64,000 nt of DNA from the NCBI GenBank assembly GCA_963696715.1, contig CAVOLC010000004.1, positions 13,616-77,615 of the forward strand. The letters run 5' to 3'. Shown here piece after piece: positions 5,087 to 26,376 of the stretch. The stretch comes from an uncultured Acidobacteriota bacterium (GTDB lineage: Bacteria > Acidobacteriota > Terriglobia > Acidiferrales > UBA7541). Position numbers and translations under genes: made by a program. The notes under the pieces were generated by a model. It had not been told where the DNA came from. It saw only the letters and a list, made by a program, of their open reading frames with translations, and searched no databases. Position 1 is the stretch's first letter, and each line of letters starts with the position of its first letter.

Positions 5087-5204
5087 ACCGGACGCTAAAC
5101 GGACGTTGAGCTGTTATTTGACGAAAGCAGCGAATGGCGTAAGATATTATGCACCAGTAAGTTGGGCCTGTAGCTCAGGTGGCTAGAGCGCGCCCCTGAT
5201 AAGG
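5087..5204 (+). repeat. Left copy of a 118-bp direct repeat (77 bp of tRNA-Ile upstream region plus 41 nt of the tRNA 5' half); putative attL
   Basis: Matches 26223-26340 at 113/118 positions. All 5 mismatches lie in the upstream 77 bp and the tRNA part is identical. Homology stops after CCTGATAAGG. Confidence 0.8.
5164..5204 (+). pseudogene. tRNA-Ile(GAU) 5' fragment (acceptor 5' strand through anticodon loop)
   Basis: GGGCCTGTAGCTCAGGTGGCTAGAGCGCGCCCCTGATAAGG is identical to nt 1-41 of the intact tRNA at 26300. The 3' half is absent and the sequence continues CTGTTAGG. Confidence 0.85.
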
Positions 5205-5301
5205 CTGTTAGGACATTTCTCTTACCCCAGACTTTTCAACGTAATAGCCTAACCCTTCATTCAGTTGCCGTGTTTCCACTCTTCGCTGATGTTTAACCTA
5301 T

Positions 5302-5339
5302 TTCGCTGATTTTTGATCCATACCGGACGCTAAACGGAC
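5302..5339 (+). repeat. 38-bp perfect copy of the integrase 3' end plus proximal att arm
   Basis: TTCGCTGATTTTTGATCCATACCGGACGCTAAACGGAC is identical to 26203-26240 (last integrase codons, stop, and start of the 118-bp repeat). A degenerate second ...CTTCGCTGA lies just upstream at 5281-5289. Confidence 0.8.
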
Positions 5340-5572
5340 ACCAACAGTTGAGAGGCTAGAACTCACTCAGGAAATAAAGCGAGCGCATGAGCCTTTCTCG
5401 TAAGGCGGTTTCCTCACAAAGCAAATGGTCATCGCACAAGAGGGATGAAAACTCCGCTCAGTACAGCACAATGTCAGCAATTCTCGACATTCCGATGGGC
5501 GGTTTCATAGGGCCATGAAAACTAGACATAAACGCGAAAACACCTGAATGGCTGGGCGTTTTTCGTCGAGTT

Positions 5573-5691
5573 GGGGACGTTCGTACAGAGAATAAAATGC
5601 TATACGCAGCAGAGTGCATCGCTTTTCCCCAGGCACCACGTAATACCCGCACCGTTTTTAATTCTCTTCGATGAGGACACCCCGGCGATCT
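5573..5691 (+). repeat. 119-bp repeat unit, copy A (conserved ends, divergent core)
   Basis: The 5' GGGGACGTTCGTACAGAGAATAAAATGC and 3' GCACCGTTTTTAATTCTCTTCGATGAGGACACCCCGGCGATCT are shared with the units at 9425-9661. Confidence 0.8.
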
Positions 5692-5711
5692 GAAAGCGCG
5701 CAATCACACCG

Positions 5712-5798
5712 TGCTCGTGTCCACGCATTGCCTACTCGCGCTTCCGATACAACACTAAGACTTATCGGGAGTTAGCAAAGTGTTCGAATAGCCCGTTC
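5712..5798 (+). repeat. ~85-bp short repeat related to the right flank of the 225-bp repeat family
   Basis: Aligns with 13219-13295. Contains CGATACAACAC (like the IR core CGACGCAACAC) followed by GACTTATCGGGAGTTAGC (like GACTAACCGGGAGTC at 11135). Confidence 0.6.
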
Positions 5799-5822
5799 AC
5801 TGGTAGTAGGCCGGGTGCATAT

Positions 5823-8216
5823 CTATTGATGCCCCGTCATTTTTCGTTTCACTTCTGCGAACCGGGGATCGCGCATCAGTTGGGGCTGCTCGATAAAGAG
5901 CCAGAACAACATTGTGGAGCGGACGTCGGCGGCCTTATTCATCCAGATGAAGGCGCGATCGGTATCGCCGAGCGCAAGGTAGTCGTCAACTATGTCGAAA
6001 GCATCGCTATGCCAATGGTCCTTCTCCCAGCTTGCCAACGAGTCCTGCAAATCCTTTTGCGTCACGCCCTTTGAACCGGAAACTGTATATATTTTGCGAA
6101 TCTGTTCGATCTCTTGGGGGGTTGCACCAGCAGCGATACGCGACTTCACATCTTCCTCGAAAGCTTCTTTCAACATGCCCTTCCTCTGGTAGCATTCGGA
6201 GAGACTATCGCGCAGCAAATGCTGGTGTTCTAGATTTGGATTCAGTTCTGCGAGGGTTTTGTTAACTTCCGCGATCGCTTCATCACAGCGGCCCACCTGC
6301 CTTAACCGGTCGACGAGCATGTTTCTCACGGGCACGGAAAGAGGGTCCACTTCCATGCCCTTGCGGATCGCAGCGATCGACTCATCGGGGCGGTTCAGGA
6401 CGCCAAGGAGAATGGAATAAAAATGGTAGGCCGTCGCGTAATTCGGGTTGAGAGCAATCGCGCGCTTAAGCTCCTCTTCCGAGCCTGAAAAGTCCCACTC
6501 ATACACCATCTTGACGACTCCCAGGGACGCGTGGCCTTCTGCCAGGTTTGGATCCAGTTCGATTGCCTTCAGTGCCGCAGCCTTGGCCATAGGCATCGCT
6601 TCGCGAGGCGGCAAATGTCCCCAGACATAACCGAGATAGAAATAAGTGTCAGCCAATCCGGAGTAAGCAGGCGCATAGGTCGGGTCCTCCCGGGTGGCCT
6701 GCTCAAAATAGTTCCTCGCTTTGCCCAGATCCTCTTCGGTCCGCAGGTTCCAGAAGAAACGGCCTCTTAAGTAATCTTCATGAGCCTCAGGATTGACGAT
6801 TGGCGCGTTCGATAGCCGCGCTTGTTCACCCGGCGTAAGCTTTGCTCGCACCTCGTCAGCGATGTCACGAGCCAATTCGTCCTGCAATGTGAGAACATCC
6901 TGCAGGTTACGTTCGTAACTCTTCGCCCACATGTGACGGTCGAGCTTTGCTTCAATCAGTTGCGCCGTGATTCGAACCCGGTTCCCCGAGCGTGCGACGG
7001 AGCCTTCCACTACTGCATCCACGTTCAACTGCTTGGCGATCTGCGGAAGTGATTCCTTGGTTTCGCGAAACTGCAAGGCCGAAGTCCTGGAAGTGACGCG
7101 TAGTGCGCTGATCTGAGCAAGGTTGGTCGTCAACTCATCCGTAATCCCGTCAACAAAGTAGTCCTGCTGGGGATCGCCTGAGAGGTTGGCCAGAGGAAGT
7201 ACCACCAGTGACTGGATCCGCAGAGCACTCGCGGGATTCGACGAATGTCTCCAATCCCCAGGATTGAATTTGAAAAGCGCGCCTGCCAAGAGCAGAGTAC
7301 TCAGTAACCCGAGACCAGCGGCATAACCTCGCCAGCGCGAGGAGGATCTTATCTCTGGAGCCTGAGAGGAAGGACTGGATAGCGCTTCAAGGTCACTTCT
7401 CAACTCGCGGGCGGTAGCATACCGCTTTCCCGGCTCTTTCTCCAAGCACTTGAGGATTATTTCGTTGAGGCGATTCGGTGTGTCACTGCCGGGTTTTCCC
7501 GGCGTTGGAGGCGTCCGATGCAAGATGTCATCGGTCAGATGGGTGGTTAGATCTTCGCGGAACGGCCGTCGACCTGCCGCCATTTCATAAAGAACCATGC
7601 CGAGCGAATAAATATCTGTGCGGCCATCCACATCGCGACCCAAAAGCTGTTCTGGAGCCATATAGGGCAGCGTGCCGACAGGCCCGCGCGTTTGGACCAA
7701 CTCCTCCAGCGTGGTTTCACTATCTGGGCGGATCAGTTTCGCCAAACCGAAGTCGAGCACCTTGGCTTGGCCATGCTCGCTCACAAATACATTCGCCGGC
7801 TTAACATCTCGGTGCACAATGCCCTTGGCATGAGCTGCTTCCAGCGCGTCTGCAATCTGCGACCCCAGCTTTGCAATTTCTGCAGTTTCAAGAGTGCGAG
7901 CAGCGATGTAGTGCTTCAGGGTTTGTCCTTCGAGCAGCTCCATCACGATGAACTGTCGCGCGTGGAACTCGTCGATGTCGTGGATCGTGCAGATATGCGG
8001 ATGGTTCAGCGCTGAAGCAGAGCGGGCTTCTCGCCGGAAGCGTTCGATTGCGACTGCGTCGGAATGCACCACTTCGGGCAGGAATTTCAAGGCCACAAAC
8101 CGGCCGAGCCGCGCGTCTTCGGCCTTGTAGACCACACCCATACCACCACCGCCTAAGTGTTCGAGGATGCGGTAGTGAGATACGGTTTGCCCGGGGAGTA
8201 GGGGGAAATCCGCCAT
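5823..8216 (-). CDS. Ser/Thr protein kinase with C-terminal TolB-N-like and TPR region
   Basis: Hanks motifs are present ([29 protein letters not shown]), then a hydrophobic segment and TPR-like repeats ([10 protein letters not shown]..., [11 protein letters not shown]...). Confidence 0.9.
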
Positions 8217-8280
8217 CGGCGCACATCTTAGGTTGAGCCAAAGGGCAAGTCAACAAAGACAGACTGCCCGCCAGCTAAGT

Positions 8281-8490
8281 CCTTCCATGAGAAGGCCGGT
8301 GAGTGTCAAGTCTGTTCTTTCATTTTTTTTCTCTTTTTTTCTTCCTTCTTCTTTCTTCTCTGTTCAAATTGTTCCCATGGAGTCAAGCCGCCTCTGTCGC
8401 CACCCTTCCATCCGCACTCTTTTTTTGAGCGATTGTCGCTCGGTGCAAGTTGGGTGTACTCGATTCAGTAGGTGCTGCTACCTGATGCCG
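8281..8490 (+). repeat. Solo ~210-bp copy of the terminal part of the IS110/IS1111-like element's 3' non-coding end
   Basis: Homologous to 20671-20883. It includes CCTTCCATGAGAAGGCCGGTGAGTGTCAAG, a 60-75-bp polypyrimidine tract and ...GAGCGATTGTCGCTCGGTGCAAGTTGGGTGTACTCGAT.CAGTAGGTGCTGCTACCTGAT. No transposase is adjacent. Confidence 0.75.
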
Positions 8491-8560
8491 CGCAGAGATG
8501 GAACAGTTGCGGCGAATCGGGAAACTCTTTTTCTTTGGCTTCGAACTGGTGAGGCCTTTT

Positions 8561-9282: not shown

Positions 9283-9424
9283 CCGGCGAGACTACACTAG
9301 GACTGTCTGGCCCAGCAAGGATACGATCATGACTGAATCACTAACGCCATCTCATTGTGGCGGAGAATGTAGCATGGAACGTTCTTTGTGGGAATTCGAC
9401 CGTAAATCTGAGTTGTTAGATTAT

Positions 9425-9661
9425 GGGGACGTTCGCACAGAGACTAAAATGCAACGTGCTGCAGAACGTACTTCCTTTCCGAGAGAACGACGCAATTAGG
9501 GCACCGTTTTTAATGCTCTTCGATGAGGACACCCCGGCGATCTGGGGACGTTCGTACAGCGAATAAAACGCAACAATCCAAGAATGCACTTCCTTTCTTA
9601 GAGAACGACGTAATTAGCGCACCGTTTTTAATTCTCTTCGATGAGGACACCCCGGCGATCT
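9425..9661 (+). repeat. Two tandem units (119 + 118 bp) of the 119-bp repeat family
   Basis: Units at 9425-9543 and 9544-9661 lie head to tail. Their ends are near-identical to copy A and their cores are ~70% identical to each other. Confidence 0.85.
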
Positions 9662-9904
9662 AGACAGCAGGCATAAATTCAATAGTTTTTCTGAAATTTT
9701 GCCCGAGACCATGTACCGCAACAATCACACGCTGCGGAACAGCTGTGAACGCGAAAACCCGGCCAGGACTTGACCCGAGCCACAAGGGCACAATTTGATT
9801 GAGCCGATCGCGATTAATCACACGACAGCTTGCACAGTTAACTAAGTCCGTTTGGTGCTACCTTTTCAAATTGTCAGCATCGAATCGCTAAGGGGGAGAC
9901 AAAT

Positions 9905-10891
9905 ATGCGAGCTGCAGTCGTACCCGCTGTGAACGGTTCCTGGGAAGTGAAAGACGTTCCACAACCTCAACCCGGCCCCAACCAAGTCCTGGTTAAGATG
10001 CACGCAAGCGGCATTTGCTATACCGATGTGCATGAAACACTCGGACACATTCCAGGACCATTTCCCCGAATCCTCGGCCACGAGCCGGTCGGCGAGATCG
10101 TGGCCGTGGCGCCCGACGTCACCACGCGCAAGGTAGGTGATCGCGTCGGCACCGCCTGGATTCAATCCACGTGCGGACGCTGCGAATGGTGCCAGCGCGG
10201 CCGCAGGATGTTCTGTCCTTACATGAAGGGCACAGGACTTGATGCACAAGGAGGCCACGCCGAGTACATGCTGATGAATGCCGACGCGACCTATCTGATT
10301 CCGGACAAGATTTCATACGAGCAAGCAGCGCCGATCTTCTGCGCAGGCTACACGGTCTACAGCGGGCTGCGCTGGGCCGATCCCCAGCCGCACGAGCGCG
10401 TGGCCGTACTTGGAATCGGCGGCCTTGGACACCTCGCAGTTCAGTACGCGAAGGCTGCGGGCTTCGAGACCATCGCGATTTCGCACTCACCTGACAAAGA
10501 CAAGTTGATCCGCGAGCTCGGCGCGGATGAAATTGTCCGCGACGGAAAGAGCCTTGCCGCAGCGGGCGGCGCGGACATCATCCTCAGCACTTCCAATTCG
10601 ACGAAGTCCATGGTGGACAGCATTCAGGGTTTACGGCCAGACGGCCGGTTGATCACAATGGGAGCAGACGCGGAGCCACTTTCCGTCTCGCTGATGGATC
10701 TCATCATGAAGCGCATCCGCATCATCGGCAGCCAGCAAAACGGCCCCGAATATCTTTACGAAGCCCTTGATTTCGTAGCCCAAGGAAAAGTTAAAACGAT
10801 AGTCGAGACTTACCAATTGGCTGAGGCTCCGAAGGCGTATCAGCGTGTCGTCGACGGCAAGGCCCGCTTTCGCGCCGTCCTGACGATGTAA
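9905..10891 (+). CDS. Zinc-dependent alcohol dehydrogenase (MDR family)
   Basis: GICYTDVH, GHEPVGEIV and the structural-Zn CGRCEWC motif are present, plus the GIGGLGH Rossmann motif. RBS AAGGGGGAG lies upstream. Confidence 0.9.
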   Translation: MRAAVVPAVNGSWEVKDVPQPQPGPNQVLVKMHASGICYTDVHETLGHIPGPFPRILGHEPVGEIVAVAPDVTTRKVGDRVGTAWIQSTCGRCEWCQRGRRMFCPYMKGTGLDAQGGHAEYMLMNADATYLIPDKISYEQAAPIFCAGYTVYSGLRWADPQPHERVAVLGIGGLGHLAVQYAKAAGFETIAISHSPDKDKLIRELGADEIVRDGKSLAAAGGADIILSTSNSTKSMVDSIQGLRPDGRLITMGADAEPLSVSLMDLIMKRIRIIGSQQNGPEYLYEALDFVAQGKVKTIVETYQLAEAPKAYQRVVDGKARFRAVLTM

Positions 10892-10920
10892 TACCGGTTT
10901 TGCCTGTCCTTTACACGCCT

Positions 10921-11145
10921 GATTAACGCTGCCAGCTCAACCGGTCGACGCAACACCATCCAATACATTGATTCGACAATGCTTCCCCGGGAGAAGCGAT
11001 CCGTTTGGCTGTACTCGGTCAAAACCTAGCCAGGGTAGTGTTCCGGCTGATCTAACCCTAGCGAGCGATTTAAGCCTTGTTTTCAATGCGAGTTGGGTTC
11101 GACCTGAGTGTTGTGTCGACCCATTGAGACCACCCGACTAACCGG
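10921..11145 (+). repeat. 225-bp repeat, copy 1 (flanks plus 198-bp IR-bounded core at 10933-11130)
   Basis: Near-identical to 19885-20110. The core is bounded by CTCAACCGGTCGACGCAACAC ... GTGTTGTGTCGACCCATTGAGAC. Confidence 0.85.
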
Positions 11146-11184
11146 GAGTCAGCGAAGATGTAACCCGTTAAATCTCTGGTAATT

Positions 11185-12126
11185 TTGACAATGGAAGCAA
11201 TCGCGCGCTGTAGTACGTTGTCTCGTACCGGCGGAAACATGAGTCCTTCTGCACACCTCGGTACGCAACCTGGGGTACAAAGAGAGGCGCTGTTCATCGA
11301 CGCTGACCCGGAAGTTCGCGAGATGCTTTGGAACTTGCTTGATCCATTGGTTTGGAACATTCGGCATGTGCCAGACAACAAGACCGCGCTGGAACAGGCC
11401 AGCTCTAGACATTTTGACCTGATCCTCACCAGCGAAAAAACTTCCGGCAAGGAAGACGTTGGACTGCTCCGCAAAATTCGAAATATCCGCCCCCACACGC
11501 GGCTTATTATCCTTGTGGAAGAAAGTGTGCCAGCGGATGTGATTGCCTCCATGCGCGAACACGCTTTCAGCTACTTTTCAAAGCCGTTTTCGCTGCCGAC
11601 GCTTGCCGACATGGTGCTTACCGCAGCAGAGGAACCTTGCTGGGATGACGGCATCGAGATCATCTCGGCAACATCAGACTGGATCCACCTTGCGGCATGT
11701 TGCGAGTTAAAGACGGCGGACAGGCTGATTCAGTTTATGCACGAAATTGCCGACTTACCCGAACCAGAAAGTGATGCGGTGGCATTTGCATTTCGCGAAA
11801 TTCTGATGAATGCAATCGAATACGGCGGGCACTTCCGCAGCGACCAATACGTGGAAATCTCCTATGTGCGAGCCAAGCACATGGTGATGTGTCGCGTGAA
11901 AGATCCTGGCGAAGGTTTCACGCTGGATGAAATCGAGCACGCTGCCATCGCCAATCCAGACGAGGACCCCCTTCGCCACATGGAAATACGAGAGGCAAAA
12001 GGGATGCGCGCGGGAGGTTATGGCGTCTTGCTAACTCGAAAGCTGGTGGACGAACTTATATACAGCGAAAAAGGTAACGATGTTTTGCTCGTGAAGTATG
12101 TTGGGGTATCCCCGTCATCGAACTAG
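11185..12126 (+). CDS. Atypical (pseudo-)receiver domain fused to an RsbW/SpoIIAB-like HATPase domain
   Basis: A REC-like fold is suggested by LFIDAD...DLILTS...LIILVEE...SKPF. The HATPase part has an N-box (EILMNAIEYG), G1 (DPGEGF) and G2 (GGYGVLL). The start codon is uncertain; an internal Met at codon 19 is possible. Confidence 0.75.
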   Translation: MTMEAIARCSTLSRTGGNMSPSAHLGTQPGVQREALFIDADPEVREMLWNLLDPLVWNIRHVPDNKTALEQASSRHFDLILTSEKTSGKEDVGLLRKIRNIRPHTRLIILVEESVPADVIASMREHAFSYFSKPFSLPTLADMVLTAAEEPCWDDGIEIISATSDWIHLAACCELKTADRLIQFMHEIADLPEPESDAVAFAFREILMNAIEYGGHFRSDQYVEISYVRAKHMVMCRVKDPGEGFTLDEIEHAAIANPDEDPLRHMEIREAKGMRAGGYGVLLTRKLVDELIYSEKGNDVLLVKYVGVSPSSN

Positions 12127-13218
12127 ACCGCGCGGCACTTGGTCGAGTAGCCGGGCGCCATTGCTGGCGCCCAGCCCTCTAAGAACCGGACTTGAAGGTT
12201 TCCCATTCATCCGGCTCGAGCACCCAAAAACGCCCCCATGAAAAACGAGGACGCGGCCTGATTCAAAACGAATCAGACCTACTCGATACTGACTGGCTGC
12301 CGATTCGCACGGCGGTGGAATCACCGGTCGTGTGTGAAGCTGCACCAATGGCTTACGCCATCGTCATTTGCTTTGCTTCATGCATCGGTTCCTCAAGAGT
12401 TCTCGAGTTGAGCACCAACGGGAAGTCAGCTCCGTTTCCGGCGAGGTGATCTTGTCCCACGAGGCGACGCAACCTCTATCTGCCCGATTACAGGGCAGCC
12501 TTCGCTTTCTCCCATTTCCGTTACCCGCATCGCCATGGGTGCCATCTTGCGATGGACTTTCCCCTTGCGAGGAGCGATACGGGCTTACCCTGTTCCGCTG
12601 AAATGACGCGATCGGTTAGATCTGCTCTCTACGCCGGCAGTGTTGATTACCCATGACAGAGAAACCGGAAGCCTCTGTGCTCACTGCCAGAAGAGCCGCG
12701 CAGCATTTTAGGCTCTCTTCGGATGACGACGCTTGCGAGCATTTGTATATTCTGATCGTACGATCAAGCCTAGGCCCGTCTCCACCTAATGCTGGCAGGT
12801 ACACCGTTGCCTCACGGTTTCGGCGCCGCTCTTGCGAGCGTGGATACATTGTCCAAGGGCTCCAGAACAGTTCGTTACCTCCCCGCTCTGCCTTGTAGGC
12901 TACGTGCGATGGGACGCACGGTCTGATCGAGTTCCTCCTCTCCAGACAATCATTTTCAGCAGCTTTCCAGGTCGCACCTCGGTTATCCGACTAGAACGAA
13001 GCCGCTTGCGCGGCAGACGCTGCGCGTGCTAGTCTCCGAAAGTCGTGCTGTAGCATGACGTCTTGAATCGCCATTTTCATTTTCGGCTGGTTTCGGCAAC
13101 TGGTGTAAAGTCTGTGAGTTACAGGCAAGAATCGATTCAATTCCCATAGCCCCGCATCTGCCCCAACCACAAGCGGCTTCCTTCAAGTCGCTCTATCGAA
13201 AGCGCGCAAGCGCGCCAT

Positions 13219-14882: not shown

Positions 14883-15071
14883 ACTGTCCCTTGGTCCAGA
14901 TTGACCTAATCTCCTCGCTACCGTATGCTCTCGCGCACAGCAACCAGGCTTGATCTACGAATGGCCCCGACTATTATTATGTCCCCGGCGCACGGCTGGA
15001 GTGCAAATGTCTAGGTTGATATCAACCAGTGCCTGGATTGAATCGACCTAAGGAGAAACAAGGAGAGTGCC

Positions 15072-16930: not shown

Positions 16931-17160
16931 GATAAACGCTGCGGTCTCAATGGCTCGACGCAACACCTGCTCGAAGCCCACGCGCAGGGCCTTAAGCAGC
17001 TACGGATCGTTCGCGAGCGCTGATTCAATCGGAACACCATCCTGGCTAGGTGTGATTGATTACAGCCGGACATTTCGGTTCTCTACAGGGAAGCACTGTC
17101 CGATCAACAGCTTAAAGAGTGTTGCATCGACCGGTTGAGCTCGCACGACTAATCGGGAGT
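16931..17160 (+). repeat. 225-bp repeat family, copy 2: same flanks, IR-bounded core (16943-17142) in inverted orientation
   Basis: The left flank GATAAACGCTGC and right flank CGACTAATCGGGAGT are in the same orientation as in copies 1 and 3. The reverse complement of the core aligns with the copy 1 core along its whole length (diverged). Confidence 0.75.
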
Positions 17161-17244
17161 TGCCACCCTCACTGTCAATTCTGACAGTTCCCCGCTTGGC
17201 TGGCCTATGAAAGCATCAATCTACTTAGTCCAACAAGAGCTAGC

Positions 17245-17964
17245 GTGAAGCACCTCTCTGCCAGGTCAAGATGGTTTCTTCGCTTCGCTCTGTTCGCGTC
17301 CCTGTCGACGCCTCTGTGTCCTCGGGTGCGCGCTCAACAGACCCAAGCTGAGTTACTCCCGGAGATCGACACCTACGTGCGTCTCACGGACAGATACACC
17401 TTGATGTTCATGGCGGCTCGCTCGACCGATGGGAACACAGTGAATTCGGCTCAGATTGGTCCGAATTTCGACATCAATTTTCGTCCGTTACGACGAAGGG
17501 TGATCCGTACGAACGACGCGGACAGAGCGAACTTCTTGACCTTGCGGGTCGGATACCAATATCTGAAGAATGTGGGCACATCGAACGAAAATCGTGTTCA
17601 GTTGGCTCTGACTTCACGCTTCCATCTGCCCTGGTCGCTGGAACTGGCTGAGCGGAATCGCGTCGACCTGCGTGTTATCAGCGGTCAGTTTTCCTGGCGC
17701 TACCGCAATCGTCTGACTCTCGATAGAAGCTTCTCCATTAGGTCTTTGTCGTTCTCGCCGTACGCCCGAGGAGAGATCTACTTCAACAGCCTGTCGGGCA
17801 CTTGGTACAAGAACACATATTCATTTGGCGCGACGTTCCCTATTCGCAAGCGATTCGAATTGGAGGGCTATTATGAGCGTGAGAACACCACCGGCGGATC
17901 GCCGCCACACGTCAATGGAATCGGGACAACTCTATCCATCTATTTACGCAGGAATCCAAGATAA
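17245..17964 (+). CDS. Putative outer-membrane beta-barrel protein (DUF2490-like)
   Basis: GTG start and a signal peptide ending ...VRAQQ. Alternating beta-strand pattern with an aromatic-rich C-terminus. The family assignment is tentative. Confidence 0.55.
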   Translation: MKHLSARSRWFLRFALFASLSTPLCPRVRAQQTQAELLPEIDTYVRLTDRYTLMFMAARSTDGNTVNSAQIGPNFDINFRPLRRRVIRTNDADRANFLTLRVGYQYLKNVGTSNENRVQLALTSRFHLPWSLELAERNRVDLRVISGQFSWRYRNRLTLDRSFSIRSLSFSPYARGEIYFNSLSGTWYKNTYSFGATFPIRKRFELEGYYERENTTGGSPPHVNGIGTTLSIYLRRNPR

Positions 17965-18100: not shown

Positions 18101-19531
18101 TTATTTCACCGGCTGGATGTCCGGCAGTTTCCAAGTTTTTTCTAAGAACCGTTGCTCGGGACCATACAGTCTGAAGTAAGCGAACCAGTCATTTCCCGCA
18201 ACGGTAGGAATCCAGTTTGCCTCCATGCCCTCTGGTGCCTTTGGGCCAAAATAAACATCCACCGACCCGTCAGCGTTCCTCTTGGCCTTCTGGTCGTAAG
18301 AATCTAGAGAAGGACGCGACACATTGCGAATGAGCGCGCACGTTGCGTGCCCGTAAATCGTCACTGACCAGAATTGTTTGACAGGCACGTCGCCGGGTAC
18401 GCGCAATCGGTAGGTTTCCTCGCCGTGTAGCCGTCGCCCCGTTGTATCAAAAAACGTGACGAGGTAGCTCTGCCCCGCTCCCAGCTTCTTGGGCGGGCAG
18501 AAGAAGCTGTAGAACGCAATCCCCCTCGCATCCACGTCCAAAATGCCTTCAGTCTCCCAAGTAAATCCACTTCTCACGGCGCTGGGCGGCACCGGTACGT
18601 CCCACTTGCTGTCAGACCAATAAGGCGAGCCAAACGTTACGAGCCGGTCCATTAGCCAACCGTGGGCTTCCTGTGCCCCAGCCCTCAGGGCCGCCTGCGT
18701 TGCTTCATTGGGTTTGAAGTCCTTACCCTTCTCAATTCCTATGGTCGGCAGCATTCCGATCATCGCTGAATCCCGCGGCTGGATGGGTTCTTCATTGAGC
18801 ATTCGAGCAAGGCTCGCGTAGAAAGTTTCGTCGAATCGAGGAACGGTGTCCCAGATGGTGTCCACCAAGTCGACATACTTGGACTGCGGCGGTGCGTCCG
18901 ATTTGCTTAACGGATAGATGCGGATGTGTTTCAGATAAGTGATTGCCTTCTGCACTGTCGCTTCATCCTCGCTTTTTACGATGAGGCGCAATCCAACGAA
19001 TCCGTTGTAGGTTTTCATCGGTACGACAATATAGCCGGAGGGCACGGCACCTTGATGGCCGGGAGGCAATAGCAGATATTTCCCGCCTTTCCCCTGGTCC
19101 TCACCCGCAAGGCCAAGGTCCGTAACCGGAACTTGCCAAGCATCAACGACAGTGCCCATCAATGCAGCGTCTCCTGTCGCAGGCAATTCAAGCACCACAG
19201 GCCCGGCTTGACTCGTGTTGACGAACGAGAAGACATAACGAACCGAGGTGTTCGGTGTCAGGCACTGAAGTTTCCAGTTCGCTGGCCGGGACCAGAAAAT
19301 AACGTCGCCATATGTTGCCTTAGCATCGCGGAAGAATGCCTGCCGCATCACGTCAAAATTGACGATGGGCATACCCCAAATCGCCGCGTCGACGGCCCGG
19401 CGTTCCATCGTTCGGCGGTTCAACTCTTCAGACGTAAGCGGGGTTGTGTTTTGCGCAATGGTCGATTGCGCCAACAGAAGTAAGCCGATAATGAGTGTCG
19501 ATACGAGCTTTGCCATAAGCTTTTTCTCCAT
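18101..19531 (-). CDS. DUF1254/DUF1214 domain-containing secreted protein
   Basis: The internal Met gives MEKKLMAKLVSTLIIGLLLLAQS, a signal peptide. ...RRAVDAAIWGMPIVN...GKYLLLPPG... is typical of the DUF1254-DUF1214 pair. Confidence 0.7.
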   Translation of the reverse strand: MEKKLMAKLVSTLIIGLLLLAQSTIAQNTTPLTSEELNRRTMERRAVDAAIWGMPIVNFDVMRQAFFRDAKATYGDVIFWSRPANWKLQCLTPNTSVRYVFSFVNTSQAGPVVLELPATGDAALMGTVVDAWQVPVTDLGLAGEDQGKGGKYLLLPPGHQGAVPSGYIVVPMKTYNGFVGLRLIVKSEDEATVQKAITYLKHIRIYPLSKSDAPPQSKYVDLVDTIWDTVPRFDETFYASLARMLNEEPIQPRDSAMIGMLPTIGIEKGKDFKPNEATQAALRAGAQEAHGWLMDRLVTFGSPYWSDSKWDVPVPPSAVRSGFTWETEGILDVDARGIAFYSFFCPPKKLGAGQSYLVTFFDTTGRRLHGEETYRLRVPGDVPVKQFWSVTIYGHATCALIRNVSRPSLDSYDQKAKRNADGSVDVYFGPKAPEGMEANWIPTVAGNDWFAYFRLYGPEQRFLEKTWKLPDIQPVK

Positions 19532-19884
19532 GACTAGACTGCAGCGTCGAGCTATTCCCCAGGACCCCGCAGGTGTATTCCAAGGCATAGCGATTGTTGT
19601 CTTGTCAGCCAAGCAATGCTACTGGCAGAAGTTACAGTACGTCGTCCTCGGGCAAAAAGGACTCAACTCCCGATGGTCCTAGGAGACCACAAAATATTGG
19701 GCTCTCCCCGCCGTGTGCGTTTTGTGAATGTGCCAGGGCATCGTACCTCTTGCGTTGCGCTTGCGCGCGTGCCTGTGGCGCTGGTTGCGCATGCCACCTT
19801 GTCATTTGCTGAACACAAGCCCGAATTGAGAATGACGCCGACCATTGCGGGTGGATGACGGAACTCGGAATAACCCAATTGGAC

Positions 19885-20110
19885 GATTAACGCTGCCAGC
19901 TCAACCGGTCGACGCAACACCATCCAATACATTGATTCGACAATGCTTCCCCGGGAGAAGCGATCCGTTTGGCTGTACTCGGTCAAAACCTAGCCAGGGT
20001 AGTGTTCCGGCTGATCTAACCCTAGCGAGCGATTTAGCCTTTGTTTTCGATGCAAGTCGGGTTCGACCTAAGTGTTGCGTCGACCCATTGAGACCACCCG
20101 ACTTACCAGG
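19885..20110 (+). repeat. 225-bp repeat, copy 3 (core 19897-20094, same orientation as copy 1)
   Basis: Near-identical to 10921-11145. Confidence 0.85.
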
Positions 20111-20189
20111 CACTACCGGCGAGTTGGAAACTGACGACAACCCGGCAGAAAGGAAGGATACTAGCGTTCGCAAAAGGAGGTCGGCAAGC

Positions 20190-20870
20190 ATGACAGAACG
20201 ATTCGCCAAAGGCCCGAGCACGTGCGTTTCAAAGATAATCAAGGCACCGCGTACGGCGATCTATCAGGCTTTCCTGGACCCGGACTCCGTGGCCTTATGG
20301 CTTTCGCCGGACAATATGAAAGGCCAGGTGCATGCCTTCGACGCACGGGAAGGTGGCATATTCCGAATGTCGCTCACGTACTTAGACCCACAGCATTCAT
20401 TGGGCGGCAAAACTTCCGAAGACACGGATACTTTCCAAGGGAGATTTGTCGAATTGGTCCCCTACTCGAAGATTGTGGAAGTCGTTGAGTTCGAGTCGCA
20501 GGACCCGGCATTTGCAGGCGAGATGAGACTTACCGTTAGCCTCGCCGACGTCGATGGAGGAACCGAAGTTACAATACTCTGTCAGGACATACCAATAGGA
20601 ATTCGGCCCGAAGATAACGAACTAGGCTGCAGGGAATCTCTGCAGAAGCTAGCTGCTCTCATGTCAGTGCCTTCCATGAGAAGGCCGGTGAGTGTCAAGC
20701 GTTTTCTCTCGTTTCTCGTTTCTCTTTTCTCTTTTTTCTTTCTTCTTCTTTATTTCTTCTTTTTCCAAATTGTTCCCATGAGCCAAGCCGCCTCTGTCGC
20801 CACCCTTCCATCCGCACTCTTTGTTGAGCGATGGTCGCTCGGTGCAAGTTGGGTGTACTCGATCCAGTAG
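20190..20870 (+). CDS. SRPBCC/AHSA1-like protein whose 3' end runs into the IS110-like element
   Basis: RBS AAGGAGG is followed by the ATG at 20190. MTERFAKGPSTCVSKIIKAPRTAIYQAFLDPDSVALWL... is Activator-of-Hsp90-ATPase-like. From about 20671 the ORF reads through the repeat and polypyrimidine tract (…FSFFFLLLYFFFF…). Confidence 0.7.
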   Translation: MTERFAKGPSTCVSKIIKAPRTAIYQAFLDPDSVALWLSPDNMKGQVHAFDAREGGIFRMSLTYLDPQHSLGGKTSEDTDTFQGRFVELVPYSKIVEVVEFESQDPAFAGEMRLTVSLADVDGGTEVTILCQDIPIGIRPEDNELGCRESLQKLAALMSVPSMRRPVSVKRFLSFLVSLFSFFFLLLYFFFFQIVPMSQAASVATLPSALFVERWSLGASWVYSIQ

Positions 20871-22320
20871 GTGCTGCTACCTGATTAGCGACCTCTGTTC
20901 CCCCTTTCGAAGGAAACTGGTCCAGGCACTGTCGCAGTCACCTGATCTCGGCGGTCGAGCTCGGCTGTTTGGATACCCTCTCTCTTCTTTCCTTCTTCTT
21001 TGCTCCTTTTTTTCTTTCTTCCTGACTTTCTCAGTTTTTCACAGAGAAATTTCGCGCCAGGATCGCCTAGGAACGACGATGGCCAACTCCCTCGACCCCT
21101 AGCATCCCCGGTTTTGTGGAGAGCTCTTCACTCTAGGCCACGGCACGCATCTCTTTGTGGCTATTGTGCAGTGGTTCGTAGACCTCTCCATTCACCCACA
21201 ACCGATGCAGCAGTACCGCTAGCTTTCTCGCCACAGCAACCACGGCTCGTTTCTTGGCATTTTTCCCACCGCGCGCCGCCAGTTTTAGACCCCAACGCCG
21301 TAGATCACTGTCTGCTCCAAAGGGTCCCAGGATGTAGTGCGCCCCCTGCACCAGCATGGTCCTCAAATAAGGGTCTCCTTCTTTACTGATGTGCTTCTGT
21401 GGTTCGCTCTGCCCCGAGTTCCGACGGCCAGGTCGCAACCCCAGAAAACAGCCGACATCCCGACTCTTCCGGAAGCGATGCGGATCTTCCAGGGTCAGCA
21501 CATAGGTCAGCGCGATCTGTGTTCCTACACCCTTCACCTGTTTGAGCAGCGCGACTTGCGGGTAGCTCTCCTTGGCGATTTTCTCCATCCGTGCGTCGTA
21601 TTCCTGGATACCCTCGTTCAACGATTCGACTTCTTTGAGCAACGGCTCCAGAACCTCGCGCAACTCGGTGCACCATCCCGCGGCCAGCTCCCGGCTCACC
21701 TGCTGCGTGCCACACCGGGGCAGTCGTAGGCCATAAGACTTCACCAACCCGCGGGCGGCGTTCACCAAGGCGGTTCGCGCACGCACTAGTTCGGCCCGCG
21801 CCCGGATCACCGTCAGGTGGATTTGCGCCTGGGCACTGCGATGCCGCACCGGCCCCAACAGCTCGGGATCGATTCGTGCCAGCCGTGCCAGGGTTCGCGC
21901 ATCGTGTCGATCATCTTTTCGAGTGCTCTTGGTAATCAATTGCACCTTTTGCGCGTGCGCCACGAGCACCTGGTGTCCCAGCTTGCTTAGCAGCCGGCTT
22001 ACCCAAGGAGAATGTGTTCCGGTCTCCATGGCAATAAGACCCCGCGGTATCTTCTCAAATATCTGTTTCATCGCTTCCGGTGTCGTCGCCACTTTCTGTT
22101 CCAGAAGGATTTCGCCCGCTTCATCCAAAACGCAGTAGCACGACCAGCGATCTCCCAGATCCAGACCGATCGTGAGCTTGTGTCCTTTGAAAATCATGTT
22201 TCCCTTTACCCGAACAGTGCTAGTCTTTTTCATAGCCGGTCTCCTTTTCTCGTGCGCTTCGAGCGCGTCGATCATTGGGAGCGTATCGCATCCCGCTGGA
22301 GACCGGCCTTCTCATCCCAT
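20671..22320 (-). mobile_element. IS110-family (IS1111-like architecture) insertion sequence, ~1.65 kb
   Basis: A 14-bp perfect sub-terminal inverted repeat ATGAGAAGGCCGGT lies at 20676-20689 and ACCGGCCTTCTCAT at 22302-22315. There is ~80 bp of 5' non-coding sequence and ~457 bp of 3' non-coding sequence after the transposase. Confidence 0.65.
21133..22233 (-). CDS. IS110-family transposase (DEDD recombinase)
   Basis: LTIGLDLGDRWSCYCVLDE..., GLIAMETGTHS and ...KDDRHDARTLARL mark the N-terminal DEDD domain. GVGTQIALTYV marks the C-terminal Transposase_20-like domain. Confidence 0.85.
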   Translation of the reverse strand: MKKTSTVRVKGNMIFKGHKLTIGLDLGDRWSCYCVLDEAGEILLEQKVATTPEAMKQIFEKIPRGLIAMETGTHSPWVSRLLSKLGHQVLVAHAQKVQLITKSTRKDDRHDARTLARLARIDPELLGPVRHRSAQAQIHLTVIRARAELVRARTALVNAARGLVKSYGLRLPRCGTQQVSRELAAGWCTELREVLEPLLKEVESLNEGIQEYDARMEKIAKESYPQVALLKQVKGVGTQIALTYVLTLEDPHRFRKSRDVGCFLGLRPGRRNSGQSEPQKHISKEGDPYLRTMLVQGAHYILGPFGADSDLRRWGLKLAARGGKNAKKRAVVAVARKLAVLLHRLWVNGEVYEPLHNSHKEMRAVA

Positions 22321-22456
22321 CTGATTAACTAATCGGAAAAGTAGAGTACTAGCCCGGAACATGTTCGATTATCCGACTTACGAACGCCCGAACCACAACA
22401 GTATTCGCGACCCCAGTTCAGTCCTTATAGAGGCACGGTATGCTAAGGTAATCTCA

Positions 22457-22963
22457 ATGCAGCTTGCCCTTTCCAACTGGATTCGAGTTTTGCTCGGAAC
22501 GTTGTTCATATTGTTTGTGTTTTCATCTTTAGCTCCACAGGAAACGCAAATCAATGCACTTGCGGAACAGATGGCGGAATCGCTCGCCCACTCCAAGCAG
22601 AAGATGGTGGCAGTCTTTGCTTTCGTCGGACCTGATGAAACGGAGGCTCTCGGCCAAAAGCTCGCTGATGAGTTTCGCGAAGCACTCGTCAAATCGGCAC
22701 ACAGTTTTCGAGTGGAAGATAGCTCTCGGTTCCTGGGAATACTGGGGAAGAATGGCGCGTTATCTGCAAGCATCGATGATGCAAACACCGCTTCGTGGTT
22801 TCTTCGCGACTCCGATGCGGACACTTCGATCTTAGGCACGGTATCGGACGAAAGCGGCGGTTTGAAGATATCTGTGTAGGCCGTTCGCGTACGGGACTCT
22901 CATCAGATTTGCAAGTTCGAGACGTCCATGCCTCTTACCGACGACCTAAAGGCAATTGTATAA
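22457..22963 (+). pseudogene. Secreted/membrane-anchored hypothetical protein interrupted by an in-frame TAG
   Basis: MQLALSNWIRVLLGTLFILFVFSS is a TM/signal segment. The ORF stops at TAG 22877-22879, but the same frame stays open for 27 more sense codons (AVRVRDSHQICKFETSMPLTDDLKAIV) to the TAA at 22961-22963. Confidence 0.4.
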
Positions 22964-23044
22964 CTGAGAACATCCATATCATCGGAATGTCGAAAGAAAG
23001 GGCTATCTTTACCTCTAGATTAGCGGGGACGAAACTCTACAATC

Positions 23045-23854
23045 ATGGATCAGATCTCCCAGCAGCCGATCAGACGATTTCCACGCCTAGCGACAGGACG
23101 TGAAACTGCGGCTTTCAAGAAAGTGCTTTGGAGTAAGACAAATTTAAAGTTGAAAGTGAAAAAGAAGCCTCCTTCTGTGGAATTTTGCTTCGATCTTCCT
23201 CTTCCTCAAGACATTGCGCGCTTGTATCCATCGGTGAAAACCTTATTCTTCGGGCCCGGCGCTGATGCTTTCGAGAAAGATTTATCGCGGGCTTACTGGG
23301 GCGTCAGTTCGGGGAAGAAAGTCAGCAACTTCATACCGAACTTATTGCATTTGGTTTATCGGAATGCAATCAATCGGTGGTTGGAGAGAGCCTGGAAGGC
23401 TGTACCTGGACGAACAAAAAAAGAAATCTCCGATTACGAAGATCAAGCCACGAAAAAGAGGGGGAAACAACCTGACGCTATCGCGGCTCTTTGGGCGGTG
23501 CATCGATTTGAGAGCCTGCAGAAACAGCTGAAGTCTCTCAGGAACTCTTATGCACTTAAAAAGTTTGACAGACCGTCAATGTGGCGTCGTGCTGAAAGTA
23601 TCGTAACACGCGATGTTTTGTCCAAGACCTTGAAGACACTCGTCGGCAACGAAAACATAGACGCTATTTTCGTGGACAGGCGTGTCACAGAGGAGCGAAT
23701 CGCGCTCGTAATGCTCAGAATAGAATTCGATCAAAAATATCCTGAAGAATCAAATCGTGGAATTACTTTGAAAAAATATCTTTCGCTTGGTGAAGAGTTA
23801 AGACTTGCGCTTTCCGCGGTTCCCAAGCCTCACGTGATCCGGTCCTCCTCATAG
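23045..23854 (+). CDS. Hypothetical protein (269 aa), island-borne, no recognisable domain
   Basis: Clean ORF in the AT-richer island end, immediately upstream of the rep-like gene. Confidence 0.55.
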   Translation: MDQISQQPIRRFPRLATGRETAAFKKVLWSKTNLKLKVKKKPPSVEFCFDLPLPQDIARLYPSVKTLFFGPGADAFEKDLSRAYWGVSSGKKVSNFIPNLLHLVYRNAINRWLERAWKAVPGRTKKEISDYEDQATKKRGKQPDAIAALWAVHRFESLQKQLKSLRNSYALKKFDRPSMWRRAESIVTRDVLSKTLKTLVGNENIDAIFVDRRVTEERIALVMLRIEFDQKYPEESNRGITLKKYLSLGEELRLALSAVPKPHVIRSSS

Positions 23855-23946
23855 CTGGTACCAGCTACCCTTACCCTAATTTGCGTTCCCGGGCAATACT
23901 CGCTTTGTATCGAGAGATTAGCTGCGGTCTAAGGGAGTCACAGAAC

Positions 23947-24813
23947 ATGCCAGCTCACAAACTTGTATTGCTTTGCAAGAACATACGTCGACCCTATTTG
24001 GGCACGGTCAAACTTCTCGGTAAGCGGGTCGGAGGATATTCCCGCTACATCGATTTGAGAGAAGGGGAAGAACGGCTGCCGGTGCGTCTTTATCAGGGAG
24101 GCATCCACGACGGCATCAATAAACTTCAATTTGATGACGAAATTGCCCAGCTCGGATTGACAAAAACACGAGAGATTGTAAACGCCATCTGCGGTCCCCG
24201 CGACGAAGTCAGGATTTCAAGGATCGATTGGTGCCTCGATCTACCTGGCATTTCCGTTGTTGATCTGGCGTTGTACTGTCGCGTTGCACGATCGCAGACG
24301 TTTGCCCTTCACCGGTCCCGTAGCGGCATAACATTCTATCTCCGACGCTCAAAGGCCTTTACCCTGCTGTTTTACGATTGGGTGGGCAAGCGCCGCGCGA
24401 GCCATCATCCGTTAGCGAGGTTCTATGGGCCGAACGATCACCTCACCAGGATCGAAGTGCAACTAAGAGGTCGCGGACTGCCTTTTCGGGACTTTGACGA
24501 AATTGAAGACTATGCGGAGATGCACCTTCTGTTAAATCTCTCGTTCTGGGAATTCGGACTCAAAAAGAAAAGACTGACAGTGATGCAGGATTTAGCAGCT
24601 GAAGGATTTCTCAAAAGGATCGAACAATACGGGGTCGCAGGAACATCCAAATTGTATAGCCCTCAAGTGTTTGCCGGCCTCTGCAAAAAGTTTCTGATCC
24701 CAGCCAGTAAATCGCCTGTTCCTGACCTAGACGAGCTCATGCAAAAAAGTAAACGTGATTGGCTGGAAGATCGTATTCGATTCCCTCGGCTTCGCGAACC
24801 GGACGCACAATGA
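23947..24813 (+). CDS. Replication initiation factor-like protein (Rep_trans-type, rolling-circle)
   Basis: RBS AAGGGAG is followed by the ATG at 23947. Three motifs resemble Rep_trans: SRIDWCLDL, ITFYLRRSKAFTLLFYDW and LTRIEVQLRG. Confidence 0.55.
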   Translation: MPAHKLVLLCKNIRRPYLGTVKLLGKRVGGYSRYIDLREGEERLPVRLYQGGIHDGINKLQFDDEIAQLGLTKTREIVNAICGPRDEVRISRIDWCLDLPGISVVDLALYCRVARSQTFALHRSRSGITFYLRRSKAFTLLFYDWVGKRRASHHPLARFYGPNDHLTRIEVQLRGRGLPFRDFDEIEDYAEMHLLLNLSFWEFGLKKKRLTVMQDLAAEGFLKRIEQYGVAGTSKLYSPQVFAGLCKKFLIPASKSPVPDLDELMQKSKRDWLEDRIRFPRLREPDAQ

Positions 24814-24954
24814 TCGGACTACATGGGGCTAGGAAGATGTCGCTTTGCCTGTATGTACCATATAGTACCCTAAGTGCGTCCAAATGTTTGCAGAGCAGTA
24901 ATCATTTAAAGGTGGCATTCATAATCTCGTTCCAATGGATGCAGGGACTACGTC

Positions 24955-25161
24955 ATGCCACTTGAGCGCGACGGTCACGATGGCGTTCGCCTCTTGAATG
25001 TGCGAGAGGCAGCCCGTTTCCTGGGAACCACGCCGAAAACGCTATACACGATGGTCTGGCGGCGCGGGATTGTGTTTGTGAAGATTGGCCGCAGCCTACG
25101 ATTTGATGTGAGGGACCTCGAACAAATTATCGAAAAAGCGAAGGTCAGGCCAAGCCAGTAA
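24955..25161 (+). CDS. Excisionase-family (AlpA/MerR-like) helix-turn-helix DNA-binding protein
   Basis: LLNVREAARFLGTTPKTLYTMVWRRGIVFVKIGRSLRFDVRDLEQ is the classic excisionase-type HTH. It sits directly upstream of the integrase. Confidence 0.75.
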   Translation: MPLERDGHDGVRLLNVREAARFLGTTPKTLYTMVWRRGIVFVKIGRSLRFDVRDLEQIIEKAKVRPSQ

Positions 25162-25193
25162 AGCAAGAAGGAAGGGGAGGTAGGGGAGAAAAC

Positions 25194-26210
25194 ATGGGCC
25201 TGTACAAGAAAGGAGAGTTATGGGGTATCGACTATTACGATGGGTGTCGGCGTCGAAGGAAACTCGTTGGATCGTCGAAGAGTCAAGCCAAGAGGGAACT
25301 CTCGAAAAGGAAAGAAGAGCGTGCTTGTGGCCGGTCCGAAGATTCCCCAAGAGTGGAAGACCTACCATTCGACCAGTTCGCGGAGCGGTACAGGGAGGAC
25401 GCAAGAGTCACCAAGCGGGGATTCCGCAATGAAAGCTATCGAATCGATCAAATCTGCGAATTTTTCGGAAAGTGTAAGCTATCTGCCCTCACAGGCGGAC
25501 ACGGGCAACAGTTCAAAATGCATACGAGCAGACGTGTCGGTCCGGCGGCCGCAAACCGATTGCTAGGCAACTTGAAGCACATGGGTTCGAGCGCAGTGGC
25601 CTGGAACAATCTATCTACCAACCCGTTTAAGGATCTGAAGTTACTAAAGGTTCCCAAGCGCCCCGAACGAATTCTTACGAAAGAAGAGGAGAATCGACTC
25701 CTGGCGTCTTGTAGTCAAGTTCGCGCGCCCCTTCTGCTAACGAGCGTCTTGATTGCGTTGAATACCGGAATGCGCAAGGGCGAGATTCATGGACTTAGAT
25801 GGGAACATGTAGATCTTCCGAATCGATTTATCTCCGTCTGGAACGGCAAGACAAACGAAAGTGACCGACGCATTCCGATGAACGAAGTTGTCTTCGAGCT
25901 ACTAACCCATCTCTCCCAACAACCTAAGGACGAATTTGTTTTTCCCAGCCCTCGGAAAAAGGGCGAACCATTTCGAGACCCGAAAGTGGGGTTTATGAAG
26001 GCCGTGCAACTGGCGAAGATTCCCCATATACGCTTTCATGATCTTCGACACACGTTCGCAACTCGTCTCGTGCGTGCGGGAGTCGATATTGTTACTGTTC
26101 AACATCTACTGGGGCACAGCAATATAAAAATGACGTCCCGCTATGCTCATTCGGACGCTGATGCTAAAATGCAAGCAGTTAAGCGTCTGGATTTCACTGG
26201 TGTTCGCTGA
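25194..26210 (+). CDS. Tyrosine-type site-specific integrase
   Basis: The C-terminal catalytic region has ...GMRKGEIHGLRW...HDLRHTFATRLVRAGVDIVTVQHLLGHSNIKMTSRYAH (R..HxxR..Y). Confidence 0.9.
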   Translation: MGLYKKGELWGIDYYDGCRRRRKLVGSSKSQAKRELSKRKEERACGRSEDSPRVEDLPFDQFAERYREDARVTKRGFRNESYRIDQICEFFGKCKLSALTGGHGQQFKMHTSRRVGPAAANRLLGNLKHMGSSAVAWNNLSTNPFKDLKLLKVPKRPERILTKEEENRLLASCSQVRAPLLLTSVLIALNTGMRKGEIHGLRWEHVDLPNRFISVWNGKTNESDRRIPMNEVVFELLTHLSQQPKDEFVFPSPRKKGEPFRDPKVGFMKAVQLAKIPHIRFHDLRHTFATRLVRAGVDIVTVQHLLGHSNIKMTSRYAHSDADAKMQAVKRLDFTGVR

Positions 26211-26222
26211 TTTTTGATCCAT

Positions 26223-26340
26223 ACCGGACGCTAAACGGACGTTGAGCTGTTATTTGACGAAAGCAGCGAATCGCGTAAGATGTTACCCACCAGTAAGCTG
26301 GGCCTGTAGCTCAGGTGGCTAGAGCGCGCCCCTGATAAGG
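26223..26340 (+). repeat. Right copy of the 118-bp direct repeat; putative attR
   Basis: See 5087-5204. It begins 12 bp after the integrase stop and ends in the anticodon stem of the intact tRNA-Ile. Confidence 0.8.
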
Positions 26341-26376
26341 GCGAGGTCGGTGGTTCAAGTCCACCCAGGCCCACCA
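26300..26376 (+). tRNA. tRNA-Ile (anticodon GAU)
   Basis: Manual cloverleaf: acceptor GGGCCTG/CAGGCCC, D arm GCTC/GAGC, anticodon stem CGCCC/GGGCG with loop CTGATAA, T arm GGTGG-TTCAAGT-CCACC, and encoded ACCA. Confidence 0.9.

Follow-up and report, generated by a model that had tools for sequence, protein, structure and literature searches.

An island in probable reversed polarity at a tRNA-Ile(GAU) gene of an uncultured acidobacterium

When an element inserts into a tRNA gene and displaces the 5′ part of that gene to the far end of the insertion, whence come the promoter and the 5′ half that the cell goes on expressing? The question is raised by a segment of about 21 kb in a stretch of 64,000 nt (contig CAVOLC010000004.1 of an uncultured Acidobacteriota bacterium), the whole of which is termed here the window. 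A direct repeat of 118 nt brackets this segment, and at its right end an excisionase gene, a tyrosine integrase gene, an 89-nt spacer and an intact tRNA-Ile(GAU) gene follow one another. We consider it probable that the segment is an integrative island, inserted in reversed polarity at tRNA-Ile(GAU) by a crossover in the anticodon loop, with an attachment site of its own (attP) that carries a promoter and the 5′ half of the tRNA. The sequences that carry the argument are the following, attL and attR being the putative left and right junctions of the island with the chromosome:

5087-5204 (+): attL-side copy of the repeat, read as the displaced promoter and tRNA 5′ half (nucleotides 1-41 at 5164-5204); repeat alignment, blastn
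26223-26340 (+): attR-side copy of the repeat, read as island-borne upstream region and tRNA nucleotides 1-41; repeat alignment
26300-26376 (+): intact (on the present reading, restored) tRNA-Ile(GAU); ARAGORN, Rfam

ARAGORN finds a single intact tRNA-Ile(GAU) gene in the window, which Rfam scores at 68.7 bits. The two copies of the repeat are identical at 113 of 118 positions (MAFFT and a repeat search) and match one another with E = 1.5e-51 in a blastn comparison within the window. They are made of 77 nt of DNA upstream of tRNA-Ile, followed by nucleotides 1-41 of the tRNA. Their five mismatches, at positions 5136, 5146, 5150, 5151 and 5162 of the left copy, all fall upstream of the start of the tRNA (5164 on the left, 26300 on the right), and the final 42 nt of the repeat show no mismatch at all. 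The tRNA comprises an acceptor strand (1-7), the D arm, the anticodon stem CGCCC (28-32), its loop CTGATAA (33-39) and the returning strand GGGCG (40-44); identity between the copies breaks off after nucleotide 41 and takes in the first 2 nt of this returning, 3′ strand of the stem. An earlier reading of this DNA from its letters alone (the original prediction) had already proposed this repeat, with its coordinates, its degree of identity, its coverage of nucleotides 1-41, its end in the anticodon stem and the restriction of its mismatches to the upstream part: the MAFFT and blastn alignments and the mismatch positions bear this out. The same reading placed the crossover in the tRNA 5′ half. 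A crossover within the tRNA stands, but it is best sited not just anywhere in the 5′ half but in the anticodon loop, where the repeat has its right edge. A 31-nt piece of the non-tRNA part is found exactly twice in the 64 kb, where no occurrence is expected. On the left, a weak Rfam match to tRNA (5164-5235, E = 0.49) probably rests on the perfect 5′ half. As a separate matter, the DNA that follows the left copy (proximal to the arm termed P′ below) was considered as a decayed tRNA 3′ half, a candidate rejected for want of any significant similarity.

The integrase gene is intact and its stop lies 13 nt ahead of the right copy of the repeat. Together with the putative arms of the attachment sites, the genes of this core module are:

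22361-24813 (+): core-module genes (172 aa, 269 aa, 288-310 aa) to which domain scans assign no family
24955-25161 (+): excisionase (HTH_17 / TIGR01764 above cut-off, phrog_66); NCBIfam, PHROGs
25194-26210 (+): tyrosine integrase, intact; PF00589, E = 3.8e-38
26203-26240 (+): P-arm block of 38 nt (integrase stop, spacer, ACCGGAC-N4-AACGGAC), kept in close relatives; repeat and spacer alignment
26254-26281 (+): promoter-like site TTGACG-16-TAAGAT, 18 nt ahead of the tRNA; consensus scan
5118-5145 (+): promoter-like site TTGACG-16-TAAGAT, displaced copy; consensus scan
5205-5342 (+): putative P′ arm of the island, holding the second block (5302-5339); repeat analysis

How would such an arrangement have come about? 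The island would have entered a free-standing tRNA-Ile(GAU) gene by means of a tyrosine-recombinase crossover in the anticodon loop, with the stem-loop CGCCC-CTGATAA-GGGCG supplying the inverted core sites. Its attP would lie just after the integrase gene and would read, in this order, integrase stop, 38-nt block, sigma-70-like promoter, tRNA nucleotides 1-41, about 97 nt, and a second block. Integration would leave, 21 kb upstream, an attL in which the former chromosomal promoter and 5′ half run into the P′ arm of the island, and would create an attR in which block, promoter and 5′ half, all from the island, lead into chromosomal nucleotides 42-77. The tRNA expressed afterwards would be a hybrid, with promoter and 5′ half from the island and nucleotides 42-77 from the chromosome. 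The reverse reaction, aided by the excisionase (Xis), would free 21.1 kb as a circle with the predicted junction ...CCCCTGATAAGG/CTGTTAGGAC (26340 joined to 5205), restoring a site where 5204 is joined to 26341; in the circularised element the two identical blocks would flank promoter and half-tRNA at nearly equal distances. A displaced fragment that is the 5′ half, placed upstream in direct orientation, together with an integrase abutting the restored gene, is the structure expected of a tyrosine-integrase island that carries the 5′ part of its target. From this anatomy we infer the exact crossover point, the function of the arm sites, the activity of the promoter and the present mobility of the island.

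The relatives of the integrase bring a second line of evidence. About 1900 homologues are found at E <= 1e-20, the closest of which (50-77% identical) belong to metagenomes of soil and peat and to Terriglobia metagenome-assembled genomes (MAGs); flank proteins point by name to Candidatus Sulfotelmatobacter and Acidiferrales. In every relative where there is DNA beyond the integrase (59-77% identical; L082, L084, L087, L088, L107, L108, L111, L113, L114-117 and L203-208), a tRNA-Ile(GAU) gene follows on the same strand, after a spacer of 89 nt in most cases and of 91-93 nt in L082 and L087. The DNA past the CCA end of the tRNA differs between relatives and lineages, homology stopping at the tRNA 3′ end, and the T-stem variants of tRNA-Ile do not track the integrase tree. 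That polarity is reversed here, with the 5′ half duplicated and the island 5′ of the gene, had been proposed from the window; the proposal is now upheld both by the anatomy of the window and by the same arrangement in all those close relatives. To judge by these sequences, reversed polarity is a trait of the whole integrase clade. What the relatives have in common with the window is the excisionase–integrase part and one neighbouring gene, and some have lost even part of this: L089 lacks all but the final 110 nt or so of the integrase gene, after which come block, promoter and tRNA, the integrase of L087 and L088 has an internal deletion, and L203-208 have the integrase with no excisionase gene. 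Persistence of the integrase-proximal end while the rest decays is what is expected if the tRNA depends on an island-borne promoter. As a side observation, the P0024 loci (L203 10334-16888) have 6.5 kb with Fic, RES and small genes between tRNA-Ile and DUF481, while DUF481 comes directly after tRNA-Ile in L107. The 6.5-kb block may be a second insertion, on the conventional side, at the same tRNA; no tRNA 3′ fragment was found at this downstream block of L203.

What drives the restored gene? The original prediction had it that one attachment-site partner must supply promoter and 5′ half of the expressed tRNA. Both copies of the repeat contain a promoter-like site, and the right copy is contiguous with the integrase gene (13 nt). 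The –10 hexamer TAAGAT, 18 nt before the tRNA, is kept in all aligned relatives except L114, and the –35 hexamer TTGACG is kept in the nearest relatives of the spacer alignment. The putative promoter and the tRNA start, contiguous with the integrase gene and conserved with it, are what a model in reversed polarity calls for.

A further repeat points to the arms of the attachment site. A block of 38 nt, 100% identical at 5302-5339 and 26203-26240, forms a third, partial copy inside the left end of the island, which the original prediction had overlooked. At 26203-26240 it takes in the final 8 nt of the integrase gene and 12 nt of spacer and runs on through the opening 18 nt of the 118-nt repeat, ACCGGACGCTAAACGGAC; it holds the motif ACCGGAC-N4-AACGGAC (26223-26240 and 5321-5338), in which two CGGAC repeats stand 11 nt apart. 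In the relatives the spacer contains a block TTCGCTGATTTTTGATCCA-N-ACCGGAC-N4-AACGGAC, exactly the 38 nt that are duplicated in the window; in the relatives that a strict pattern matches, each locus has a single match, invariably next to the integrase stop. The left block begins 97 nt right of the left core, and the right block ends 100 nt left of the right core, near-equal distances that fit arm sites. In lambda-type integrases the N-terminal domain binds to short direct repeats, which lie on each of the two attP arms. For such an enzyme the CGGAC motifs, paired 11 nt apart, conserved in the family and present on both arms, are obvious candidates for arm-type sites. Since such an island must carry a working tRNA promoter, the putative packing of arm sites, promoter and half gene in about 235 nt becomes directly testable, as do a change in expression of the host tRNA upon integration and a decay constrained by the host's need for the island promoter.

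Is the integrase of a kind that would use such arms? Its catalytic residues R194, K219, H282, R285, H308 and Y317 are all kept in an alignment with 31 homologues. An AlphaFold2 (AF2) model made from the 32-sequence alignment, with a mean predicted local distance difference test (pLDDT) score of 84, begins with three strands (2-6, 9-16, 19-26) and a helix (29-44), followed by a low-confidence linker and then by the SAM-like and catalytic domains. Foldseek aligns full-length lambda Int structures (1z1b, 1z1g, 5j0n) to this model over about 340 columns, the best score being that of the Tn1549 Int, while by sequence the catalytic domain matches archaeal XerA-type recombinases and the HP1 integrase (1aih, E = 8e-14). 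The predicted build is like that of lambda Int, with three domains including an arm-binding N domain. G+C is 0.47-0.52 over the core module around the integrase against about 0.55 overall. The original prediction described the right end as a block of hypothetical, rep, xis and int genes, of which xis and int stand. For rep, the gene of 288-310 aa next to xis is kept in relatives at 44-46% identity; its product in the window matches nothing in Pfam, PHROGs, NCBIfam or PDB, one homologue gives a sub-threshold match to Rep_trans (E = 0.012), and a single-sequence AF2 model is uninformative (pLDDT 32). The protein may be Rep_trans-like, which is a lead and no finding.

Is this polarity peculiar to the tRNA-Ile clade? 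A survey of 80 distant homologues (25-38% identical) in reference genomes, counted among the matches listed, places a tRNA gene within 600 nt of the integrase in 29 of them. For 24 of the 29 the tRNA is on the opposite strand and the island lies on the 3′ side of the gene, which is the usual polarity. Four more have it on the same strand just past the integrase 3′ end (L002, Leu; L003, Asp; L006, Arg; L057, Leu), and in the remaining one (L078) it is on the same strand, upstream of the integrase. A metagenome locus (L091, Thr) also has its tRNA on the strand of the integrase; being too short, it was left out of the neighbour-joining tree, itself a sketch. A placement of the integrase in a phylogeny had been suggested; in this rough tree the Ile clade is monophyletic, and the other four same-strand cases are placed near it, among members of usual polarity. 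The sketch would suggest that polarity has switched within one integrase family, which is plausible with a symmetric core. A different arrangement is seen in L057, a Deltaproteobacteria MAG, where a copy of the 3′ part of tRNA-Leu(CAG), 66 nt long (4084-4149), stands 6.6 kb upstream of the intact gene (10760-10842) and the integrase; a 3′ part upstream is a configuration that Islander would reject.

With reference to known systems, the island is a further case of a known, rare kind. Islands in reverse orientation at tRNA genes have already been described (Zhao and Williams, 2002, J Bacteriol 184:859, in the passages of PMC6563490 and PMC1635311 that cite this work). Table 1 of Islander counts 159 islands with a 5′ fragment of the tRNA gene (tDNA) out of 3919, the other 3760 having a 3′ fragment, and its rule is that a 5′ fragment must sit upstream of the tDNA, with an island length of 2-200 kb (PMC4383910). 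Here an intact tDNA has a cognate fragment on the same strand 21.1 kb upstream, and an integrase lies inside. Like the 5′-fragment islands, that of the window has a tyrosine integrase and a displaced 5′ tDNA part upstream of the restored gene; it is this displacement which means that the element must carry the 5′ part and its expression signals. It differs from those described in its acidobacterial host, in its target, tRNA-Ile(GAU), and in the length of the shared segment (118 nt, with promoter and putative arm sites).

Among tRNA-integrating elements, Williams is said to have distinguished in 2002 an anticodon-loop class, of which phage HP1 is reportedly the classic case. The island resembles this class in that identity ends at the anticodon stem-loop, with the stem as putative inverted core sites, and in the match of its catalytic domain to the HP1 integrase. 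Elements of that class, however, usually take with them the stretch running from the loop to the tRNA 3′ end and sit on the 3′ side of the gene; the window island is their mirror image. Lambda Int systems are similar in their N, SAM-like and catalytic domains (here predicted), in direct repeats about 100 nt from the core on both arms and in an excisionase gene upstream; unlike them, the present system, with 18-20% sequence identity, has a 38-nt block in place of arm sites of about 10 bp, and its arm sites are candidates. What the locus offers is a fully bounded example of a rare, mirror-image integration at a tRNA gene, in a poorly studied phylum and with an unusually explicit putative attP. 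Moreover, a whole clade of acidobacterial integrases points to reversed polarity at tRNA-Ile(GAU), leaving fossils that bear a promoter. Software meant to find islands must accept 5′ fragments and cope with nested repeats.

Several observations weigh against this reading. The promoter-like site matches the consensus at 9 of 12 positions only. The perfect duplication of 38 nt exceeds the usual length of an arm site and could betray a nested event. The left copy of the repeat resembles the integrase-proximal spacers of relatives as much as the right copy does (67/77 against 66/77 for L107, 61/77 against 62/77 for L111), so that it may be the relic of an earlier element and not a naive chromosomal site (attB). 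Two accounts fit this likeness: a relic of an earlier element of the family, by serial replacement, or an attP copied from, and kept like, the native upstream region of its hosts. The genomes and metagenome contigs compared showed neither an empty site nor an excised circle nor a second complete island, and on either side of the island synteny with the nearest genomes is lost. Within the 8-10 kb available upstream in L107, L111, L113, L114, L203 and L204, there is no tRNA 5′ fragment or second block. A scan upstream of the integrase in L107, L111, L113, L114 and L203-L208 likewise gave no CGGAC pair, 5′ fragment or second block, in flanks of 10 kb that may be too short.

The comparison with related genomes proposed at the outset yielded no empty site in L118-L122. 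On the right flank, the M15 peptidase has homologues (83-85% identical) on the long contigs L118-L120, which share with the window only the M15-YkuD pair, near which stands a tRNA-Gln or tRNA-Lys gene, not tRNA-Ile. On the left flank, the genomes with the sthA homologues (88-90% identical; L121, L122) cease to be syntenic at the stop codon of that gene, and no tRNA is found there. Public reads gave only soil-metagenome Logan contigs, at 2-7x, that cover parts of the region and have no informative joints. As to the left flank itself, the first gene of the window, cut by its left edge, is an sthA-like NAD(P) transhydrogenase gene (3-515, +). In L087 an 82%-identical sthA gene (2774-4087) and an identical tRNA-Ile converge, with 47 nt between the gene and the tRNA 3′ end; in the closer genomes L121 and L122 a Fer2/MoCoBD operon comes after sthA instead. 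The genome of the window might have undergone an inversion of about 769-26400, one breakpoint of which would be at the IS481 element; the idea is thin, being drawn from one locus (L087) and a weak co-occurrence of He_PIG.

Could the two repeats belong to two events? It might be that a recent insertion of 20.9 kb used the 38-nt repeat (5302-5339 / 26203-26240) as its attachment site, the 118-nt repeat being the scar of an older element of this family, since deleted almost in full. The attachment site would then lie upstream of the tRNA promoter and overlap the integrase stop, and the present tRNA and promoter would be chromosomal (fossil) DNA. The perfection of the inner repeat (38/38) next to five mismatches in the outer one would agree with this, as would the order outer, inner ... 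inner, outer, the element-derived look of the left copy and the existence of fossils reduced to the integrase end, spacer and tRNA, as in L089. Yet the 38-nt block has direct repeats only and lacks the inverted core that a tyrosine recombinase would use, whereas the boundary of the outer repeat coincides with the anticodon stem-loop, a classical symmetric core. A mini-element of 235 nt would be needed as an intermediate, along with an integrase family using two different cores, and the distances of 100 and 97 nt between block and core would be a coincidence: we hold this course of events to be quite improbable.

It may also be asked whether the segment still is a unit. An old integration in reversed polarity could by now be a fixed mosaic of decayed elements, insertion sequence (IS) copies and a group II intron, with no excision as a unit. 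The integrase and excisionase genes are intact, however, and at both attachment sides the 42-nt core region and the 38-nt block are perfectly preserved, which speaks for sites that are recent or still competent. These features make a mere fossil unlikely, even though the relatives share with the window only xis-int and a neighbouring gene, two IS elements and the intron lie inside, G+C is chromosome-like over most of 10-22 kb, and within 8-10 kb a left end is seen in none of the relatives. More doubtful still is a complete tRNA-Ile carried as cargo and itself no attachment site, the 118-nt repeat being an unrelated segmental duplication. Integrase and tRNA do travel together in all relatives, and two close genomes with sthA have no tRNA-Ile where L087 has one, but the tRNA sequence of the left copy is cut short at the anticodon stem with no 3′ half after it, the homology of relatives ends at the tRNA 3′ end, and the T-stem variants, as noted, do not follow the integrase tree.

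An integrative island in reversed polarity, with its promoter and 5′ half in attP, remains the preferred reading, and it allows for a more speculative extension. Tentatively, each arriving island of this kind might swap in its own promoter and 5′ half, decay never removing the integrase-proximal end, in the manner of a ratchet. The likeness of the left copy to the spacers of relatives, the stub of L089 and the excisionase-less L203 would then be signs of serial turnover. If this possible scenario were true, the tRNA-Ile(GAU) gene of the lineage would be permanently driven by mobile-element DNA.

The rest of the island, which had been said to carry a Hanks kinase, an alcohol dehydrogenase (ADH), a receiver/HATPase protein, a twin-arginine-exported haloperoxidase-like protein and two IS elements, does so according to Pfam, a PDB match and the SRRKFLG motif:

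5823-8216 (–): Hanks-type Ser/Thr kinase with TPR repeats; Pfam, NCBIfam
9905-10891 (+): zinc-type ADH; Pfam
11185-12126 (+): receiver domain fused to RsbW-like HATPase_c_2; Pfam, NCBIfam
12142-12921 (–): group II intron RNA without open reading frame (ORF); Rfam
13465-14892 (–): IS481-like element, with transposase (13506-14810) and imperfect terminal inverted repeats; Pfam, repeat analysis
15072-16898 (+): vanadium-haloperoxidase homologue of 608 aa with twin-arginine motif SRRKFLG; PDB 7qvw (vanadium bromoperoxidase), E = 1e-61
17245-17964 (+): DUF2490 protein; Pfam
18101-19612 (–): DUF1254/DUF1214 protein; Pfam
19845-20870 (+): AHSA1/SRPBCC protein; Pfam
21133-22275 (–): IS110-family transposase; Pfam

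The intron, which has no intron-encoded protein, sits between the receiver-HATPase gene and the IS481-like element and is recognized by two Rfam families, RF02012 (domains D1-D4, 12774-12921, 89 bits) and RF00029 (D5-D6, 12142-12219, 51 bits). Pfam finds no phage structural gene among the larger ORFs of the island that were scanned, and PHROGs, applied to seven proteins, matches the integrase and excisionase only; IMG/VR has no match to the tRNA-Ile 5′ half and yields distant integrases only. Neither Pfam nor NCBIfam matches a relaxase, a coupling protein or type IV secretion genes among the larger ORFs scanned of 5.2-26.2 kb. Judged on the genes scanned, the island is neither a prophage nor an integrative and conjugative element.

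Other repeats are scattered through the island. A unit of about 118 nt, TGGGGACGTTCGTACAGAG...GATGAGGACACCCCGGCGATCTG, is found near the left end (5572-5692, a copy without match to any Rfam family) and as a tandem pair (9424-9544 and 9542-9662). The stretch 5734-5775 just right of the first copy, onto which most of the matching contigs fall, reaches a word depth of 57-269x in soil metagenomes as compared with about 7x for the adjoining DNA, and is therefore widespread. An intergenic repeat of about 205 nt with long CT-rich tracts (8281-8486 / 20670-20885, 75-95% identity) and another of 226 nt (10921-11146 / 19885-20110, 96%), the first 70 nt or so of which recur in inverted orientation at 17088-17160, stand in reversed order at their two locations. 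Outside the island, a second element of the IS481 family (26394-27670; transposase 26420-27604, –) with imperfect terminal inverted repeats of 48 nt sits 17 nt past the 3′ end of tRNA-Ile and parts it from the M15-YkuD genes.

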